Shown: in pieces, positions 1,429 through 8,859 of the stretch | Position numbering within the stretch: position 1 is the stretch's first letter | Layout of the letters: each line of letters starts with the position of its first letter | Assembly (NCBI GenBank): GCA_031369685.1 | Contig: JANMPD010000099.1 | Span: forward strand, 3,076-67,075 | Source of the DNA: Chloroflexota bacterium | GTDB lineage: Bacteria; Chloroflexota; Limnocylindria; Limnocylindrales; CSP1-4 | DNA length: 64,000 bases | Reading direction: 5' to 3' | Made by a program: the position numbers and the translations under genes | The notes under the pieces: generated by a model | Seen by the model: the letters and a program-made list of their open reading frames with translations, nothing else | Database searches by the model: none | What the model was told of the DNA's origin: nothing

Positions 1429-2477
1429 TCGACCACCGAGCTCGGACAGCCCGCTCCGCTGCAGCCGCCGACCGTCACCTTGATCACGCTCGACAGCGAC
1501 GCGAGCACGCCATCACCGGTGGCTGGGACGAAGGCGGCCGACCACTCGTAGGTCGCCCTTGGTGAGACCATGAGCACGTACGTTCCATCTGTTGTCCCGC
1601 TCGGGGTCATGGGCCCGATGCTCGTCCAGGTGGTGGACCCGACGACCCGCCGTTTCAGGACCACCGTGCGCGCACTGATCGGATCGCTCATCAGGGCCCG
1701 ATTTGTCGACGCGCTGGTGGTCTTGAGCGTGGCCGTGAACCTGACCGCGTCCCCGACCCAGATACTGCTGGAGGACGCGCCGAGGGTCGTGGCTGTGGCG
1801 ATCGCGAGGCAGGACGAAAAGAGGGCACCCGCGGTCTGTCGGTCGTACTCGAGCTGGAGACGGGCCACGTCGCAGGGCGCGAATCCGTGGGCGAACCAGC
1901 CGGTATCGGGACGTGCCCGGCTGAGGGCCTGGACGACGGCGTCCAGGTAGTCCGAGTTGGTGCTGTTGTTCACGTGGTGACCGAGATCCTCGATGTGTCC
2001 GAACTCATCGAGCGCGATGGTCTCCGCGTCGAAACAGCCGTTGGCAATCGTTGCCAGTCCCTCGCACCAGCGGAGCGCGCCCCAGTCGAAGACGTAGTTC
2101 TGGGCGCGAAACCACATCTTGAAGCTCGTCGGTGCTCCGGACCGATCCGCGCAGGCAATGCCGGCCGACGAGCAGCCGGTCGGTTCGCCGTACGCGATTG
2201 TGCTCGCGGCGCCCGACGCTACCCGCGCGAAGGTCGCGGCGCGAGAGGCGCGAGTGCGGCTGGCATCGGCGGCCCCATTGTCGATTGCCGTCGCCATCCA
2301 CGCCGGCGGTGCCTGATTCGCACGCCATTGGTACGTGACGGCCTGATTCTGCGCCCAGAGTGCCCCACCGAGCAGGGGATCGGGTCCATGTGCAGTGGCG
2401 CTGCCGGCGGCGATCGCCATCAGCAACGTACCCAGCAGGATCGAGCGGTAGATGTTGCTTCGGACGTGCCTGATCAC
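1425..2477 (-). CDS. Secreted hypothetical protein with a metzincin-like DEFGHxxxxGHH motif
   Basis: Signal peptide (LLGTLLMAIAAGSATAHG). Motif ALDEFGHIEDLGHH resembles HExxHxxGxxH with the first His replaced by Asp. 4-nt overlaps with both neighbours. Confidence 0.5.
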   Translation of the reverse strand: MIRHVRSNIYRSILLGTLLMAIAAGSATAHGPDPLLGGALWAQNQAVTYQWRANQAPPAWMATAIDNGAADASRTRASRAATFARVASGAASTIAYGEPTGCSSAGIACADRSGAPTSFKMWFRAQNYVFDWGALRWCEGLATIANGCFDAETIALDEFGHIEDLGHHVNNSTNSDYLDAVVQALSRARPDTGWFAHGFAPCDVARLQLEYDRQTAGALFSSCLAIATATTLGASSSSIWVGDAVRFTATLKTTSASTNRALMSDPISARTVVLKRRVVGSTTWTSIGPMTPSGTTDGTYVLMVSPRATYEWSAAFVPATGDGVLASLSSVIKVTVGGCSGAGCPSSVVE

Positions 2478-3586
2478 GGTCGATTCCCCCTGGCCCGGGC
2501 GGGTGACGTGGCGATGTCAAGGAACGTCGGCGGTCCGCCGGGGCGGATCAGCCCGATCGCATCGGATGACGTTTCGATCCCGGTTGTCCCGGTGCCGTCC
2601 TGCAGGAACACGCCACGCTCAAGCTGACCGAGCGCGAGGCGCCGCCCGCTGGAGAGATCCACGAGGGTCGCCGTCGTCGTCCCATCAGCCATTCGGCGGA
2701 TCACGACGACCCGGCCATCGCGCGTAACGGCCGCACCGGCGGTGCCGGTCGCGATCGTCGTCGACCGTCCCGTCCGGAGATCCCAGGCGAGGATGTCACA
2801 GGGCAGGCCGGGACACGCCGCCCGGGTGATCAGCATCCGACCGACGATGCCGACGATGCTCCCGTGTTCGCCAGCGATCGTTGCAATCGCGCCCGTTGCG
2901 ATGTCGAGGACTCGGGTGACGCAGCGGTCGGGATCACAGGACTGAACGGCAAGTCGAGCGCCGTCGGCAGAAAGGATCAGGTCGGTCGACCAGACTCGCT
3001 TGATCCCGGCCCGCTGGAGCAACTCAGTGGTTGGTGGGACGACAAGCTGGGTTGGGCGCGACCCGTCGAGTGGCACTCGCCAGGTTCCGAGATCGGCGCG
3101 CGTACCACGCTCCAACAGATGCACCAGGGTCGTGCTCCCGTCACGCGTCAGCACCGCGCGACGGGCGATGGATCGCTCGATCGAGAGGGACCGCGAGCAT
3201 GGTGCCGTGGTGTCGATGACCTCGATGGTCGAGCGGGTCCCATCCTCGACGGTTGCCACGATGCGACCCTGGATTGGCCCGGAAACGAAGCTCCCGGGTG
3301 GCAGGTCCAAGACCACTGCACGAGCCCTCGGCGCTCCGATCGTGACCGTCCACCCCGTCAGGGACCCCTGAATGTCCGTGATCGGTCGCTGATCCCACCA
3401 CGTGCCATCGGCAGATCCGGGAGCGGCGGCCGCCGTTGCGTCCGCCGGCACGCACGCGACCAGTTGGGTGGGTAGCGGCAGGCTCCCGGCAGCAACACGA
3501 GGTGCGCCCCGGAACCCCGACCCGACGGCGAGGACCATGACCAGCGGCGGCCCGAGAATCACGACCCGACGTAGCCTCGATCTCAT
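2474..3586 (-). CDS. Secreted hypothetical protein (first gene of the 3-gene secreted operon)
   Basis: N-terminal hydrophobic signal segment (VVILGPPLVMVLAVGSG). Repetitive beta-rich Thr/Gly/Asp sequence. 4-nt ATGA overlap with the downstream gene. Confidence 0.5.
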   Translation of the reverse strand: MRSRLRRVVILGPPLVMVLAVGSGFRGAPRVAAGSLPLPTQLVACVPADATAAAAPGSADGTWWDQRPITDIQGSLTGWTVTIGAPRARAVVLDLPPGSFVSGPIQGRIVATVEDGTRSTIEVIDTTAPCSRSLSIERSIARRAVLTRDGSTTLVHLLERGTRADLGTWRVPLDGSRPTQLVVPPTTELLQRAGIKRVWSTDLILSADGARLAVQSCDPDRCVTRVLDIATGAIATIAGEHGSIVGIVGRMLITRAACPGLPCDILAWDLRTGRSTTIATGTAGAAVTRDGRVVVIRRMADGTTTATLVDLSSGRRLALGQLERGVFLQDGTGTTGIETSSDAIGLIRPGGPPTFLDIATSPARARGNRP

Positions 3587-3689
3587 TGCGATACCTCCTC
3601 CGGCGGGGGGCGGGAGGAGGGCGGAGGCTGCCAGTGTCGAGGTGGGCGCTTATCTGCGGATCACCTGCGCAGTGGCGGTGCTACAGTTC

Positions 3690-3870
3690 CCCTGATCGCT
3701 CAACCGGGCGGTCCCCCGAGTCGTCGCGAAGCCGGTGCAACTCCGGCACAGTCCCGCTACGGTGATCGTCGCTCCGGCGACGTAAGTCCGGTCGCCGACA
3801 CTCGGTGGATGCACGACCTTCGAGAGAAAGGCAGGCTCCCCGATGATTCCGACCGACTGACCAGTTCGCG
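3690..3870 (+). ncRNA. Cobalamin (AdoCbl) riboswitch
   Basis: Core GAAGCCGGTGCAACTCCGGCACAGTCCCGCTACGGTGA (3729-3766) matches the conserved RF00174 core (GGTGcaAaTCCgg...CCCGC.AC.GTgA). It lies in the 5' leader of a BtuF-type ABC importer operon. A downstream GAGAAAGGCAGGC segment resembles the B12-box region. Confidence 0.65.
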
Positions 3871-3931
3871 TCCCATCGACCCCGGCGGACGCCTCGGCCC
3901 GCCGCCCCACCCCTCGGTCGGAGACTCCCTG

Positions 3932-4972
3932 ATGGATCCTTTCGCGTCATTACGCGCGCCGCGTTTTGGAACCGGCACTGCGCCTACCCGCTCCCGCCGC
4001 CGAGATGTCGGCGGCATCACCCGGCTCGCGCCGATGGCCCTCGCCCTCGTGCTCGCGGCCTGCACAGGCGCGGCCGCGACGCCCACTGCCACGACCGCGC
4101 CCGTTCCAACGGTCGCCAGTACGCCTGCTCCCACGCCGACCCCGGCACCTGCCTTCCCGGTCACCATCGTCGACGACGAGGGCACGAGCGTCACGCTCGC
4201 CGCCGAGCCGCTCAAGATCGTGTCGCTCACGCCGGCCGCCACGGAGACCCTGTTCGCCATCGGCGCCGGGCCGCACGTTGTGGCCAAGGTCGAGGACATC
4301 ACGCCGTATCCGCCGGAGGCCGATTCGCTGCCGGTCGTGGCCACGTATCAGGGGGTCGATGTCGAGAAGATCGTCAGCTTGCGCGCGGACCTGGTGATTG
4401 CCGGGGGCCTCGGGTTCACGCCGCCTGCCGCGGTCGCCCAGCTCCGGACCCTTGGGATCCCCGTTGTCGTGCTGTATGCCGAGTCCGTCGCCGGCGCGCT
4501 GGCCGGAATCAACACCGTCGGGACCGTGACCGGGCAGGCCGACGAGGCGAGTGTCCTCACCGGCGCGATGCAGGCCGAGTTCGACCGGCTCGCGGCCCTC
4601 ACGCAGAAACTGCCGAAGCCGCTCACTTTCTACGAGATCGATGCCCAATCGGCCATCTACACGGTGCCGGCGGACTCGCTGTATGCAGAGTTGCTACGCC
4701 TTGCCGGCGCCGACCCCATCACGACGGATGCGAGCTACCAGATTTCGCTGGAGCAGCTCATCACCGCCAATCCTGAGGTGATTCTTCTCGGTGACGGCTC
4801 GTCCACGACGCCGGCGGACGTTACGGCACGACCCAACTGGGACGGGATCAAGGCCGTGGTGGACGGGAAGATCTTTCCGGTGAATAACACACTCATCACC
4901 CGCCCTGGCCCGCGCCTGGTGGAGGGCCTTCGGGCATTGATCAAGGCCCTGCACCCGGAGGTCCAGACCTGA
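3932..4972 (+). CDS. ABC transporter substrate-binding protein, cobalamin/Fe3+-siderophore type (BtuF/FecB family)
   Basis: Periplasmic-binding-protein class III features (LKIVSLTPAATETLFAIGAG...VEKIVSLRADLVIA). Lipobox LAACTG. Alternative start at 4034. The 3809 start would lie inside the riboswitch. Confidence 0.8.
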   Translation: MDPFASLRAPRFGTGTAPTRSRRRDVGGITRLAPMALALVLAACTGAAATPTATTAPVPTVASTPAPTPTPAPAFPVTIVDDEGTSVTLAAEPLKIVSLTPAATETLFAIGAGPHVVAKVEDITPYPPEADSLPVVATYQGVDVEKIVSLRADLVIAGGLGFTPPAAVAQLRTLGIPVVVLYAESVAGALAGINTVGTVTGQADEASVLTGAMQAEFDRLAALTQKLPKPLTFYEIDAQSAIYTVPADSLYAELLRLAGADPITTDASYQISLEQLITANPEVILLGDGSSTTPADVTARPNWDGIKAVVDGKIFPVNNTLITRPGPRLVEGLRALIKALHPEVQT

Positions 4973-5046
4973 GCTTCGCAACGCGCGCCGGGCTTCTCGG
5001 CCCGCGACCACGTTCCGGGATCCGCGCCGCGCTCGCTCGACGCCCC

Positions 5047-6054
5047 GTGCTGGTGGCGGTGAGCGGCGCGACGCTGCTCGCGGTCGCTCTCATTGCCGGG
5101 ATCGCGGCCGGATCGGTCGCGATCTCGCCGGCCGATACGCTCGGCATCCTGGCTCATCGGATGCTGGGACTCGACGTGACGCGGACGTGGACAGCGGCCG
5201 CCGAGACGATCGTGATGGACCTGCGCCTGCCGCGGGTCCTGACCGCGATGGTCGTCGGCGGCGGCCTCGCGGTTGCCGGCGCCGCGTTCCAGGGCCTGCT
5301 CAGGAACCCACTTGCGGATCCGTATGTCCTGGGCACGGCCTCGGGGGCTGCGCTCGGGGCCGCGGTCGCGGTGCTGATCCCCGTCCGGACGCTCTTCCTC
5401 CAGTTCGGCCTGATCCATGCCCTCGCGTTCATCGGGGCGCTCGGCGCCGTCGTGGTCGTCTACCGGTTGTCCAGGGTCGGGGCCACGGCGCCGATGACGA
5501 GCCTGCTGCTCACCGGGTATGCGGTCAGCTCGCTGCTCGCCGCGGGGCTGGCGATGGCGATGTACCTGTCGGGAGCCGGATTACGGCAGATCTTCGCGTA
5601 CCTCCTCGGTGGCTTCGACGCCGCCTCCTGGGGGCGCCTGGCGGTTGCGGCACCGCTGATCCTCATATCCAGCTTCGTGATCCTGCTTCGGGCACGGAGC
5701 CTCAACGGCATGCTGCTGGGCGAGGAGGCCGCCGCCCACCTTGGGATCGACGTTCGACGAGAGCGGGCCGTGCTCCTGGCGGTCGCGTCGCTGGCCACGG
5801 CGGCTTCGGTGGCAATCTCCGGGCTGATCGGGTTCGTCGGCCTCGTGGCGCCCCACGTCGTTCGCCTGCTGGTCGGCCCGAACGCTCGCCTGGTGCTGCC
5901 TCTGGCAGCGCTGCTCGGGGCGAGCCTGATGGTCGGCGCGGACCTCATGGCCCGGTTGCTCGGCGAGATTCCCGTGGGCGTGGTCACGGCCGTCGTGGGA
6001 GCGCCGTTCTTCCTCGCCCTGCTCCGCCGCGCCCATACCGGTTATGAACTGTGA
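5047..6054 (+). CDS. Iron-complex/cobalamin ABC transporter permease (FecCD/BtuC family)
   Basis: About 10 TM segments with FecCD signature regions. Follows the binding protein. Confidence 0.85.
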   Translation: MLVAVSGATLLAVALIAGIAAGSVAISPADTLGILAHRMLGLDVTRTWTAAAETIVMDLRLPRVLTAMVVGGGLAVAGAAFQGLLRNPLADPYVLGTASGAALGAAVAVLIPVRTLFLQFGLIHALAFIGALGAVVVVYRLSRVGATAPMTSLLLTGYAVSSLLAAGLAMAMYLSGAGLRQIFAYLLGGFDAASWGRLAVAAPLILISSFVILLRARSLNGMLLGEEAAAHLGIDVRRERAVLLAVASLATAASVAISGLIGFVGLVAPHVVRLLVGPNARLVLPLAALLGASLMVGADLMARLLGEIPVGVVTAVVGAPFFLALLRRAHTGYEL

Positions 6055-6791
6055 TCCGCCTCGACGGTGTATCTGTCGTCTATCGGGACCGCGCCGCGCT
6101 TCGCGATGTGACCCTCACGATCGATTCCGGCGAACGGGTCGCGATCATCGGTCCGAACGGGGCTGGAAAGTCGACCCTGCTGCGAGTGATCGCCGGACTG
6201 CTTCGTCCGGCGACCGGAACGGTGGAGCTCGGAGGGGACCGCGTCGATCGCCTTGAGCGCATGACCGTGGCACGACGTCTCGCCGTGGTGCCCCAACTGC
6301 CGGTGCTGCCATTTGCCACGACCGTCGAGGAGGTCGTCGCCCTGGGTCGCCTGCCGCATGAGCATCCCGTTCGGGGCATGCGGCCCGGCGACCGAGCGGC
6401 CGTCGCCGCCGCAATCGAGCGGGTCGGCGTGGGTCACCTGCTTGGTCGCGACGCACGTGAGCTCTCACTCGGTGAACGCCAGCTCGTCTTGCTGGCGATG
6501 GCGGTCGCCCAGGACGCGCCAGTCCTGGTCCTTGACGAGCCAACGGTCCACCTCGATCTCCGTCATCAGGTGGAGGTCATGGAGCTGGTCGGCGATCTCA
6601 ACACCCGTGACGGAACGACCATCCTCGCCGTCCTCCACGATCTCGGCCTGGCCGCCCACTTCTTCCCGCGCCTGATCCTGCTGGACCGTGGACGTGTGGT
6701 CGCCGACGGCTCACCGGCCGACGTCCTGGCTCCGGAACGGATCCGCGAAGTCTTCGGGGTCGATCCCACGTTCGTCCGCCTGGGGACGTGA
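6051..6791 (+). CDS. ABC transporter ATP-binding protein (BtuD/FecE family)
   Basis: Walker A GPNGAGKST, signature LSLGERQ and Walker B LVLDEPT. 4-nt overlap with the permease. Confidence 0.9.
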   Translation: MIRLDGVSVVYRDRAALRDVTLTIDSGERVAIIGPNGAGKSTLLRVIAGLLRPATGTVELGGDRVDRLERMTVARRLAVVPQLPVLPFATTVEEVVALGRLPHEHPVRGMRPGDRAAVAAAIERVGVGHLLGRDARELSLGERQLVLLAMAVAQDAPVLVLDEPTVHLDLRHQVEVMELVGDLNTRDGTTILAVLHDLGLAAHFFPRLILLDRGRVVADGSPADVLAPERIREVFGVDPTFVRLGT

Positions 6792-7543
6792 CCCCAATCT
6801 GGGCAAATCCATGCGCGGGCGGATTGCCCGACGCGTCGTGCTACGCTCCATGCGTGAATCGAGTGCGCACGGTACGCCGCGTCGCCCGACGCCTTTCTCC
6901 GATTGCCGCGATCGCCGTGGCATTCGTGGTCGTGGGATGCAGCGCCAATACCAGCCCGTCAACCCGCCCGCAGGGCAATGGCGCGACGCCGTCCGCGTCG
7001 GTGGCCCCGACCGTTGGGGCGCCGAGTCCGGACGTTCAGACGCCCACGCCGGATCCGGGCCCAACCGCAACCGCGACTGACGCCGGCGCCTCACCGTCTC
7101 CGTCGAATGTCGCGAACGGATGCAGCGGGAGCGACGCCAACCGGACCTTCTTCGACCAGGCGGCGGCAACGATGTCGTGGCCGGTCTACTGCGCGGTGCT
7201 TCCGACCGGCTGGTTCGTCGAAGCCGGCAGTTATCGCGTGGCGAACGGCGGCCACCTCAACATCACGTATCGAGGACCGGGCAACGCGCACCTTGCGATC
7301 ACCGAAGGCAACGTCTGCGACGGCCTTGGCACCGACATCGACGTGTGTGCTCCACGGGACGCGGTGATCGGCCCTGCCGCGTTCGGCGACCAGGTTGGCG
7401 AACTCGGGCAGGAGGGCACCGGACTTGTGCTCGATGTCGACCGTGGCGCCAACCCATCCTGGCGTGTCACGGGCCTCGGCATCAGCGCGGCGGACTTCAC
7501 GCTCCTGTGCGCCGCGATGTACCACGTGACCGCCGGCGGCTGA
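6788..7543 (+). CDS. Hypothetical lipoprotein (fourth gene of the riboswitch-controlled operon)
   Basis: ATGA overlap with the ATPase gene. Signal/lipobox AVAFVVVGCSAN followed by a Pro/Thr/Ala-rich linker. No recognisable domain. Exact start uncertain. Confidence 0.5.
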   Translation: MTPIWANPCAGGLPDASCYAPCVNRVRTVRRVARRLSPIAAIAVAFVVVGCSANTSPSTRPQGNGATPSASVAPTVGAPSPDVQTPTPDPGPTATATDAGASPSPSNVANGCSGSDANRTFFDQAAATMSWPVYCAVLPTGWFVEAGSYRVANGGHLNITYRGPGNAHLAITEGNVCDGLGTDIDVCAPRDAVIGPAAFGDQVGELGQEGTGLVLDVDRGANPSWRVTGLGISAADFTLLCAAMYHVTAGG

Positions 7544-7737
7544 GCCGGGCGCGCGGCAGCGGGGGAGCTGCCGGCCCTTCTCAGCGCAGTGCGGCCGCGA
7601 CGAGGGTCGCCACGGCGTCCGCCGTTCGCTCGGGATCGCCACCCTGCCCGATGATCATTGACGTGGCACCGAACCCGGCGAGGGCAGCGGCGGGGCAGCG
7701 GAATACGTGCGCGAGCCCTGCCGGGCATCATGCACGG

Positions 7738-8859
7738 ATGCGCATTGCCGAATTCGAGCTGGAACGCTACTTCGCCCGCTGGGAGTTCGCGGTCAAGCAC
7801 CTCCTGTGCGCCAGCGACGTCCAGGGCTGGTCGATGTCCGAGCTCCTCGAGCATGCGGACGATGCGACGGCCGCACTGTGGCGCGACCTCCATCTGGGCT
7901 ACACGGAGGCGCCCGGTCACCCGCTCCTCCGACGCGAGATCGCATCGCTCTACGAGACCGCGACGCCCGCCGATGTCCAGGTCCTGAGCGGGGCCGAGGA
8001 GGGGATCTTCGCCCTCGTCAACGTCCTGCTCGGCCCGGGCGACCATGCGATCGTGACGTGGCCGGGTTACCAGAGCCTGTACGAGATCGCGCGGGCCCTG
8101 GGTGCCGACGTCACGCTCCACGAACTCCGTGAGGACGCTGGCTGGGCAATCGATGTCGAGACGATGCGTGGCCAGGTCACGCCACAGACGAAGTTGATCG
8201 TCATCAACGCCCCACACAACCCGACCGGCATGCTGCCGGATCGCGCGACATTCGATGCCATCGTCGCGGTCGCCGCCGAGGCGGGCGCGCACCTGCTGGT
8301 GGACGAGGTGTATCGGTACCTGGAGTTCGAGGACGGCGCGCGTTTGCCCGCCGGCGTGGACGCAGGCCGGCACGTGATCTCGCTCGGGGTCATGTCCAAA
8401 TCGTTCGCCATGGCAGGCCTCCGGATAGGCTGGATCGCATCACGGGATTCGTCGTTGCTTGCCCGGGTCTCATCCTTCAGGGACTACACGACGATCTGCG
8501 CGTCTGCCCCGTCCGAGATCCTCTCGCTGATCGGGCTGCGCGCACGTGACGTGGTGCTTGGCCGGTCGCAGGCACTGGTGGCCCGGAACATGACAGCGAT
8601 GGACGCGCTCTTTGCCCGTTGGCCCGACACGCTGTACTGGGTTCGGCCGGGCGGTGGGTCGATCGGATTCCCGCGGCTCCGCGAGGACCTCGACATCGAT
8701 GCCTTCAGCGCCGAGCTGGTGGAACGGGAAGGGGTGTTGCTGCTGCCCGGGTCACGGTTCGGCCATCCCGGCAACCACTTCCGGATCGGCTTCGGGCGCG
8801 AGGACCTGGATGAAGCCGTGGCGGGGTTGGAACGGCACCTGGAGCGCGTGTCGCGGTAG
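7738..8859 (+). CDS. Pyridoxal-phosphate-dependent aminotransferase, class I/II
   Basis: N-terminus FELERYFARWEF...; PLP-lysine motif SKSFAMAGLRIGW; NPTG motif. The long ORF 7120..8859 has a non-coding-looking N-extension, so the start is set at ATG 7738. Confidence 0.85.
   Translation: MRIAEFELERYFARWEFAVKHLLCASDVQGWSMSELLEHADDATAALWRDLHLGYTEAPGHPLLRREIASLYETATPADVQVLSGAEEGIFALVNVLLGPGDHAIVTWPGYQSLYEIARALGADVTLHELREDAGWAIDVETMRGQVTPQTKLIVINAPHNPTGMLPDRATFDAIVAVAAEAGAHLLVDEVYRYLEFEDGARLPAGVDAGRHVISLGVMSKSFAMAGLRIGWIASRDSSLLARVSSFRDYTTICASAPSEILSLIGLRARDVVLGRSQALVARNMTAMDALFARWPDTLYWVRPGGGSIGFPRLREDLDIDAFSAELVEREGVLLLPGSRFGHPGNHFRIGFGREDLDEAVAGLERHLERVSR

Follow-up and report, generated by a model that had tools for sequence, protein, structure and literature searches.

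Cobalamin riboswitches control btuFCD uptake operons and btuFCD-cobTSCU salvage operons in various bacteria, including the Dehalococcoidia of the phylum Chloroflexota. Limnocylindria and related members of the same phylum are abundant in soils and fresh waters. A survey of metagenome-assembled genomes of freshwater Chloroflexi reported no recognizable B12 transporters (PMC6169038). In Bacteroides, the B12-locus lipoproteins BtuG, BtuH, BtuJ, and BtuK were once uncharacterized and were then shown to bind cobamides (PMC13616437), and in Mycobacterium tuberculosis the translation of an upstream open reading frame (uORF) controlled by a B12 riboswitch is required for the expression of PPE2 (Kipkorir et al. 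2024, PMC11260477). Here, we analyzed a 64-kb window (the whole stretch of DNA under study, from contig JANMPD010000099.1) of a Limnocylindria-type Chloroflexota genome, in which positions 3690-7543 hold a riboswitch, the genes of a BtuF/BtuC/BtuD-type importer, and a fourth gene, here called G4, for a small lipoprotein. A riboswitch with such an importer is ordinary and well known as a kind. What the locus adds, as judged from sequence comparison, is a conserved leader mini-ORF with natural variants and a lipoprotein family that is linked to B12 operons in ~90% of the sources compared and for which we propose a candidate function only.

The locus was singled out by an earlier interpretation of the letters and their open reading frames (the sequence-only reading), which quoted a riboswitch core motif, GGTGCAACTCCGGCACAGTCCCGCTACGGTGA, that we located at 3734-3765. 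A scan of the whole window with Rfam at gathering thresholds matched 0 families. A sensitive scan of 3550-4000 recovered RF01482 (adenosylcobalamin, AdoCbl; clan CL00101) on the plus strand at 3703-3838, where the model was matched over its full length with an E value of 8e-7 and a score of 43.5 bits, below the gathering threshold of 50. RF00174, the family that the sequence-only reading had expected, stayed below threshold in the window copy; the reading had itself named the lack of a significant RF00174 hit as evidence against it, which is technically what the scan at gathering thresholds gave.

Because the window copy scored below gathering, the element was tested comparatively. Among seven related loci, fetched through homologues of G4 and numbered with the prefix L, five carry a gathering-level cobalamin riboswitch at the equivalent place (RF01482 at 51 to 55 bits in L002, L004, L006, and L007; RF00174 at 37 bits in L001). 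We built a covariance model, R1, from six copies and applied it to 89 sources, that is, the window and 88 fetched loci. Exactly one copy was found in 69 of these sources, the window and 68 others, always directly 5′ of btuF and on the same strand. Among the sources that have a btu or cob gene directly before G4 but no match, most are contigs that end short of the leader. In an alignment of 64 distinct copies, standard pairs make up 95.5% of the cells, compared with 30 to 45% after the partners are slid, a percentage that leans the model's way because the alignment was fitted to it. Double-sided changes, which are informative despite this fitting, occur in 17 of 37 pairs, and the observed values were reached by 0 of 500 shuffles.

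These data bear on whether the element could be a degenerate, non-functional remnant of a riboswitch upstream of a constitutively expressed operon, as the lack of a gathering-level match in the window (43.5 versus 50 bits) might suggest. We consider a remnant extremely improbable, given that the model was matched along its full length at a low E value, that the aptamer core is nearly identical to that of orthologues that pass gathering, that 69 copies share the position and show compensatory changes, and that the expression platform downstream is conserved. Since orthologues pass gathering, 69 sources hold a single copy 5′ of btuF, and the pairs covary, we regard the cobalamin-clan riboswitch as genuine on comparative grounds and the window copy as a low scorer against the Rfam models. 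The proposal of a cobalamin riboswitch 5′ of the operon thus held, through RF01482 and its orthologues.

The importer was also correctly recognized. The products of three co-directional genes encoded together downstream of the riboswitch match the expected substrate-binding, permease, and ATPase families above Pfam gathering (Table 1). Their scores against NCBIfam models all fall below the curated cut-offs for equivalog-level membership. The top match of btuF is TIGR04281 (132 bits, below cut-off) and its second is BtuF PRK03379 (97 bits versus a cut-off of 234), btuC best matches BtuC PRK09535 (271 versus 461 bits), and btuD best matches a “corrinoid ABC transporter ATPase” (236 versus 537 bits). 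We therefore infer the corrinoid specificity of the importer from the riboswitch and from its gene neighbors, including the presence of cobS, cobU, cobT, and cobC in the operons of relatives. BtuF, a lipoprotein, would act with BtuC and BtuD as a type II ATP-binding cassette (ABC) importer for corrinoids, and the locus is predicted to be a cobalamin-repressed corrinoid uptake operon of Limnocylindria-type Chloroflexota. Taken alone, the riboswitch and BtuFCD part of this explanation is in our view very likely correct.

The further suggestion that all four genes are translationally coupled stood in part. The genes are co-directional and btuC and btuD overlap by GTGA (6051-6054), but 74 nucleotides (nt) of open frame separate the btuF stop at 4972 from the first canonical btuC start, GTG 5047; a CTG at 4969 that overlaps the btuF stop is a possible alternative. 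The ATGA overlap described for the fourth gene is not present. The possible overlap between btuD and G4 is instead GTGA (6788-6791), and many G4 homologues start, with “VNRVRTVRR...,” where the window has GTG 6854, which suggests the same start for G4.

Between the aptamer and btuF lies a leader mini-ORF of conserved length. In the window, its ATG (3843) follows 11 nt after GAGAAAGG, a Shine-Dalgarno-like segment of the last aptamer hairpin. The ORF has five codons in 48 of the 69 riboswitch copies and six in 1, with the start placed 9 to 13 nt after AAAGG. Its length is constant among peptides that are not: 29 different ones occur among 45 tabulated copies (MIPTD, VHRIT, MRPTG, VHTIP, MDESG, and others), and this turnover without a change in length speaks for selection acting on the translation of the ORF rather than on its product. 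Going by base composition, we roughly estimate that ~2% of random frames at this GC content would stop after exactly five codons, a figure to be read with the relatedness of the riboswitch copies in mind. At the position of the mini-ORF start, 11 loci have the start codon of the long btuF ORF itself, from which we conclude that the position is a genuine riboswitch-gated start.

Two arrangements connect the mini-ORF to the ribosome-binding site of btuF. In the window leader, CCGACCGA, which lies inside the mini-ORF, is perfectly complementary to TCGGTCGG (3914-3921), overlapping the btuF Shine-Dalgarno region, and pairs with it in the minimum-free-energy fold. CCGACCGA is conserved in close relatives of this leader, and L063, L065, and L084 keep complementarity to the btuF Shine-Dalgarno region with different sequences. 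In a group of leaders typified by L004, the mini-ORF ends directly at a hairpin, CCCCTCC...GAGGGG, which often has a U-rich stretch behind it. The 3′ arm of this hairpin can pair instead with a second segment, CCCCTCCGG, that otherwise masks the btuF Shine-Dalgarno sequence CCGGAGG, so that CCCCTCC, GAGGGG, CCCCTCCGG, and CCGGAGG form a four-segment hairpin relay. Compensatory arms, CCCCCGG and CCGGGGG, are found in L061, and when folding was performed with the ribosome footprint blocked, the Shine-Dalgarno region was freed in L004 and L057.

The leader ORF thus probably relays control to btuF by way of the ribosome. When B12 is scarce, the five-codon leader would be translated from the ribosome-binding site at GAGAAAGG, and the leader ribosome would cover the anti-Shine-Dalgarno segment CCGACCGA (or keep the terminator arm single-stranded). 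This would leave TCGGTCGGAG free and allow btuF-btuC-btuD-G4 to be expressed. With AdoCbl bound, the ribosome-binding site of the leader would be sequestered, the leader would go untranslated, the helices would form, and expression would fall. Two observations speak against so simple a relay. The window leader fits it less neatly than the L004 group does, since CATCGACC can also pair with the Shine-Dalgarno region. In addition, the duplex energies of post-leader segments with btuF Shine-Dalgarno regions were −14.4 kcal/mol when matched and −12.4 kcal/mol when mismatched, a weak difference, with a few start sites mis-picked, that we do not count as proof. When the leader and a hairpin at the G4 stop (7539-7585) were folded as single sequences, their z-scores were close to 0, and at 68% GC thermodynamics alone says nothing. 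A scan of 3400-7900 for consensus promoters and terminators found none, a result that is uninformative for this phylum and GC content.

The fourth gene encodes, as had been proposed, an uncharacterized lipoprotein with no recognizable domain: no Pfam family matched G4 even at E values of up to 10, and no NCBIfam family matched above cut-off. The protein consists of a signal peptide with the lipobox VVGC, a linker of ~55 residues rich in Pro, Thr, and Ser, and a domain of ~145 residues. In RVRTVRRVARRLSPIAAIAVAFVVVGC we find the charged n-region, the hydrophobic h-region, and the [LVI][ASTVI][GAS]C motif expected of a substrate of Sec and signal peptidase II. The signal peptide, lipobox, and linker are conserved among homologues, and the lipobox Cys51 (6938-6940) is present in at least 90% of them. 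The protein had been described as a surface lipoprotein; it is extracytoplasmic, but “surface” here would mean anchored in the cytoplasmic membrane, the cell being presumably monoderm. C112, C135, C177, C187, F121, W131, W142, Y161, and W225 are invariant in an alignment of 32 sequences, and the four Cys, F121, W142, and Y161 are still invariant in one of 121. The four Cys residues presumably form disulfides.

A model of the G4 domain made with AlphaFold2 (AF2) is confident (predicted local distance difference test [pLDDT], 93.1; predicted template-modeling score [pTM], 0.88) and shows a small alpha/beta domain. The sequence-only reading had suggested structure prediction and a search for B12-binding folds; a Foldseek search of the model against the PDB gave no significant fold match. 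A profile search against PDB sequences likewise found no relative, only the signal-peptide and linker regions of unrelated lipoproteins. Two candidate family assignments were discarded. The NCBIfam match “lipo-invert tail” (20 bits versus a cut-off of 37) falls in the signal and linker region, and PF27998, precomputed on two homologues, was not reproduced with local Pfam, which gave only low-complexity “PT repeat” matches.

A word-indexed search returned 138 homologues, all unnamed or “hypothetical,” and those with a named organism are from Chloroflexota or Candidatus Limnocylindrales. From 1.84 billion cluster representatives, a profile search retrieved 344 members of the family, and 226 GTDB species genomes hold a relative. 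Judged by the model and these searches, G4 is a confidently folded small lipoprotein family restricted to one lineage and without an annotated domain.

Table 1. Features of the riboswitch-importer locus (positions in the 64-kb window).
Feature	Position	Strand	Basis
Cobalamin (AdoCbl-type) riboswitch aptamer, including the 3′ hairpin bearing GAGAAAGG	3698-3843	+	RF01482, orthologues, own model R1, covariation
Shine-Dalgarno-like GAGAAAGG within the last aptamer hairpin; predicted ribosome-binding site gated by the riboswitch	3824-3831	+	Invariant in aligned copies
Leader mini-ORF, ATG ATT CCG ACC GAC TGA (MIPTD*), 5 codons plus stop	3843-3860	+	Conserved length
CCGACCGA, proposed anti-Shine-Dalgarno inside the mini-ORF (codons 3-5)	3849-3856	+	Complementarity to 3914-3921; putative role
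TCGGTCGGAG, including the btuF Shine-Dalgarno GGAG (3920-3923), 8 nt before the btuF ATG	3914-3923	+	Invariant in 10 aligned leaders
btuF-like substrate-binding lipoprotein (lipobox LAAC, Pro/Thr linker)	3932-4972	+	PF01497 Peripla_BP_2, 96.9 bits
btuC-like permease	5047-6054	+	PF01032 FecCD, 276.9 bits
btuD-like ABC ATPase	6051-6791	+	PF00005 ABC_tran, 112.6 bits
G4 lipoprotein ORF, 251 amino acids (ORF from GTG 6788, likely start GTG 6854)	6788-7543	+	Homologue alignment
G4 globular domain, ~145 amino acids	7100-7543	+	Alignment, AF2 model

To place G4 in its genomic context, the genes for BtuF/C/D and CobS/U/T/C and the flanking genes were mapped by tblastn on the 89 sources. The gene order is conserved: in 78 sources, G4 is immediately preceded by btuD or cobC/cobT in the same orientation (3 of the 89 were too short to judge). 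With the riboswitch also present in 69, the suggested co-occurrence of the lipoprotein with B12 regulation was borne out. About 20 of the 78 loci have the order btuF-btuC-btuD-cobS-cobU-cobT-cobC-G4 (e.g., L004), with G4 last in the operon, though none of the four cob genes was found in the 64-kb window. The gap from the upstream stop to plausible G4 starts is mostly −4 to ~130 nt, and in several loci G4 overlaps cobC or btuD by 4 nt. The gene after G4 varies (an aminotransferase, an arginase-fold gene or GCV_T, both on the minus strand, and others) and the upstream link persists. In several lineages (e.g., L030-L036, L063, L078, L079, and L084), both flanks differ while btuFCD-G4 is retained. 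Three further loci (L052, L054, and L059) keep G4 beside a B12 operon of another type, described below, that stands in the place of btuFCD.

A lipoprotein that stands behind B12 uptake or salvage genes in ~90% of sources makes a B12-linked extracytoplasmic binding role plausible, and the Bacteroides precedent (PMC13616437) makes the idea of an accessory lipoprotein reasonable. We propose that G4 would be a fourth, co-transcribed, membrane-tethered extracytoplasmic protein, held on its Pro/Thr linker, whose small domain most likely serves to bind an extracellular ligand. Its most likely role would be to capture a corrinoid, or a part of one such as the lower ligand, or to hand it over to BtuF, any such ligand being putative. 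A B12-related extracytoplasmic role for G4 seems to us a serious possibility that falls a little short of an even chance, and direct capture of corrinoids within that role is distinctly less likely.

Several observations weigh against this proposal. G4 resembles no known B12-binding protein in sequence or in fold, and its best Foldseek match is the N-terminal domain of RseB (2v43_B; E value, 0.013; TM score, 0.42). Co-transcription of G4 with btuFCD is presumed from sequence, and because every operonic case belongs to a single class, shared descent of the gene order may account for part of the linkage. Five sources (L039, L040, L050, L053, and L080) have G4 but no B12 gene nearby, and L050 and probably L080 resemble btuFCD-bearing relatives from which btuFCD is simply absent. 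In the loci compared on this point, L050, L053, and L080 as well as L054 and L059, the protein is intact with all four Cys.

Distant paralogues of the G4 domain add to these doubts. Profile searches found a lipoprotein that carries the G4 domain twice in tandem (P0127); P0251 and P0265, in each of which a membrane segment joins a cytoplasmic N-terminus to a G4 domain at the C-terminus; and a PP2C-phosphatase membrane protein that ends in a G4 domain (P0241). The gene for P0251 directly follows that of an extracytoplasmic-function-type sigma-70 factor with a 4-nt overlap, the position of an anti-sigma factor (L090, 496-2444), and the gene for P0127 lies among Crp and ROK regulators. Neither of these two readable contexts is related to B12, which marks the G4 domain as a general extracytoplasmic recognition module, reusable for sensing or binding, and the operonic lipoproteins as by far the largest subgroup of proteins that carry it. 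The sequence-only reading had conceded that a lipoprotein routinely found outside B12 contexts would undermine it. The link is present in 78 of the 89 sources, alongside five loci without B12 genes nearby and paralogues elsewhere.

The stand-alone copies and sensor-type paralogues keep a non-B12 role alive. G4 could be a lipoprotein of general envelope or sensor function, such as a RseB- or LolA-like binder of lipids or wall components, encoded by a conserved backbone gene beside which B12 cassettes happen to have been inserted and into which read-through has no functional meaning. Consistent with this, the weak best fold matches are RseB/LolA-like and START/lipocalin-like binders of hydrophobic ligands, the domain is reused in the anti-sigma-like and PP2C proteins, and G4 is retained in the five sources without btuFCD. 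The segment upstream of G4 is also variable and may hold btuFCD, btuFCD-cobSUTC, or an inverted operon of the energy-coupling factor (ECF) type, or nothing. In L052, L054, and L059, btuFCD is replaced by an RF00174-headed ECF-type operon on the opposite strand, and G4 lies divergently beside the riboswitch. A conserved promoter-like sequence, TTGACC-N17-TAGGCT, lies directly before G4 in L039 (~810-870) and L040 (~815-870), ~8 nt from the ATG, and suggests a near-leaderless, independently transcribed G4 in these two loci.

A backbone gene with chance neighbors is harder to reconcile with an arrangement kept in ~90% of sources, with a linkage to btuD or cobC that persists where both flanks have diverged, or with a tight or overlapping junction that recurs with two different upstream genes. 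The recurrence of this junction is hard to explain without selection for co-expression. We consider the envelope role unlikely, though with enough in its favor to be taken seriously.

G4 could also serve the transporter without binding corrinoids, as an assembly or stability factor or in the docking of BtuF, or it could bind a non-corrin salvage substrate. The binding of a lower-ligand base or of alpha-ribazole would agree with the frequent placement of G4 behind cobS-cobU-cobT-cobC, in ~20 operons that contain these genes of nucleotide-loop assembly and that G4 closes. A small domain with several invariant aromatic residues (F121, W131, W142, Y161, and W225) is compatible with such a role, as is its use as the extracytoplasmic part of the anti-sigma-like protein, which suggests recognition of a protein or small ligand. 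Set against this, no known importer of free lower ligands uses BtuFCD, and G4 occurs without cobSUTC in most loci, including the window. We judge a partner of this kind to be improbable, more so than an envelope protein. The most far-reaching reading of the locus combines corrinoid capture by G4 with the leader switch: a new corrinoid-capture family of presumably monoderm Limnocylindria, with a fold unseen in any solved B12-binding protein, that would relay its ligand to BtuF, and a mini-ORF switch that would unmask the ribosome-binding site of btuF. As a whole it is tentative and, in our estimate, more likely wrong than right.

Other features of the window and of related loci were noted. The ECF-type operons of L052, L054, and L059 comprise the riboswitch, a first gene for a 426-amino-acid secreted or membrane-anchored protein, and further genes for CbiQ, a fused double ATPase, and an ECF S-component. 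The 426-amino-acid protein (L059, 8158-9438; L054, 8158-9465; L052, 462-2030; all on the minus strand) has no Pfam match and carries repeated “...DGSFSS.G..NTNS.GVAGQAL...” motifs, which we take to resemble alpha/alpha-toroid repeats, like those of prenyltransferases or of the transcobalamin alpha-domain. It is a candidate for a second, independent extracytoplasmic B12-binding protein. No second G4-like domain was found in the window, in any locus, or in this protein.

Three co-directional ORFs on the minus strand of the window (2474-3586, 1425-2477, and 880-1428) are transcribed away from the riboswitch. Their products match no Pfam or NCBIfam family and have hydrophobic N-termini that resemble signal peptides, and the ORFs are conserved beside the B12 locus in most relatives, also where btuFCD is replaced (L054/L059) or absent (L080). 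Downstream, a class I/II aminotransferase gene (7738-8859, plus strand) begins 194 nt after G4, of which it is a frequent but not constant neighbor. A CobD-like identity was considered and dropped, since its best NCBIfam matches are PRK07324, GntC, and pyridoxal phosphate-dependent enzymes of the capreomycidine-synthase VioD type; on account of these matches and the gap, the gene is not counted in the operon. A 1,011-amino-acid protein with an ABC_tran fragment (P0221) is likely a gene-call artifact across btuD-G4 and was not used as evidence. ARAGORN found no tRNA in the 64-kb window.

At least this lineage of Chloroflexota has a riboswitch-controlled BtuFCD importer, often joined with cobinamide-salvage genes, and because the freshwater survey reported no B12 transporter (PMC6169038), this type of locus fills an annotation gap. 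The locus also nominates one specific small protein as a candidate accessory factor. Corrinoid binding by G4 would make it the first accessory protein of this kind beyond the outer-membrane systems of the Bacteroidota type, and one with a new fold; without such binding, the locus amounts to an ordinary operon for B12 uptake that carries a passenger gene.

Compared with known riboswitch-btuFCD operons, the locus has the same plan, a cobalamin-clan aptamer 5′ of a Peripla_BP_2/FecCD/ABC_tran importer on the same strand, and relatives of the window share with btuFCD-cobTSCU operons the inclusion of cobS, cobU, cobT, and cobC. It differs in its sub-gathering riboswitch, in an extra terminal lipoprotein gene without a family, and in an expression platform that in most copies appears to act through a five-codon leader ORF.

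The domain of G4 resembles the unclosed beta-barrels of the RseB N-terminal and LolA-like type in being extracytoplasmic and in its best, non-significant structural match, and it is also present in an anti-sigma-like protein. The similarity is too weak to assign a fold, and there is no sequence relationship.

The closest parallel in proposed role is with BtuG, BtuH, BtuJ (DUF4465, beta-jellyroll), and BtuK, which are likewise extracytoplasmic lipoproteins, unannotated in function, of uptake loci regulated by B12 riboswitches, and for which G4 would share the proposed relay. The likeness to BtuG and BtuH drawn by the sequence-only reading therefore stands as far as a lipoprotein in a B12-riboswitch locus is concerned, but it does not extend to sequence or fold, and the shared role is conjectural. 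G4 shows no sequence homology to these proteins, including no match to PF14717 (DUF4465) in the Pfam search, and no significant PDB match to a fold of their types (beta-propeller, beta-jellyroll, and others), so it is not a member of their families. It is also set apart by its attachment to the cytoplasmic membrane, in a cell that is presumably monoderm, by the lack of a BtuB partner, and by binding that is putative. In its favored role, G4 would by analogy be comparable to the accessory B12-binding lipoproteins of Bacteroidota or to the haem relay from NEAT domains to IsdE.

The leader is most like that of M. tuberculosis ppe2 (PMC11260477), where a B12 riboswitch also gates a short upstream ORF and where downstream expression was shown to need uORF translation. 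The ORF described here, known from its sequence, has only five codons and ends ~70 nt before btuF, which probably points to the unmasking of the Shine-Dalgarno region from its anti-Shine-Dalgarno segment, or to the prevention of a terminator-like hairpin, rather than to termination-reinitiation. Unlike ppe2, the Chloroflexota loci also include natural variants whose start codon at this position is that of btuF itself. The leaders form a natural comparative series, from direct gating of btuF to a five-codon ORF with either an anti-Shine-Dalgarno segment or a four-segment relay, and they could thereby open mechanisms of riboswitch-to-ribosome relay to direct tests.

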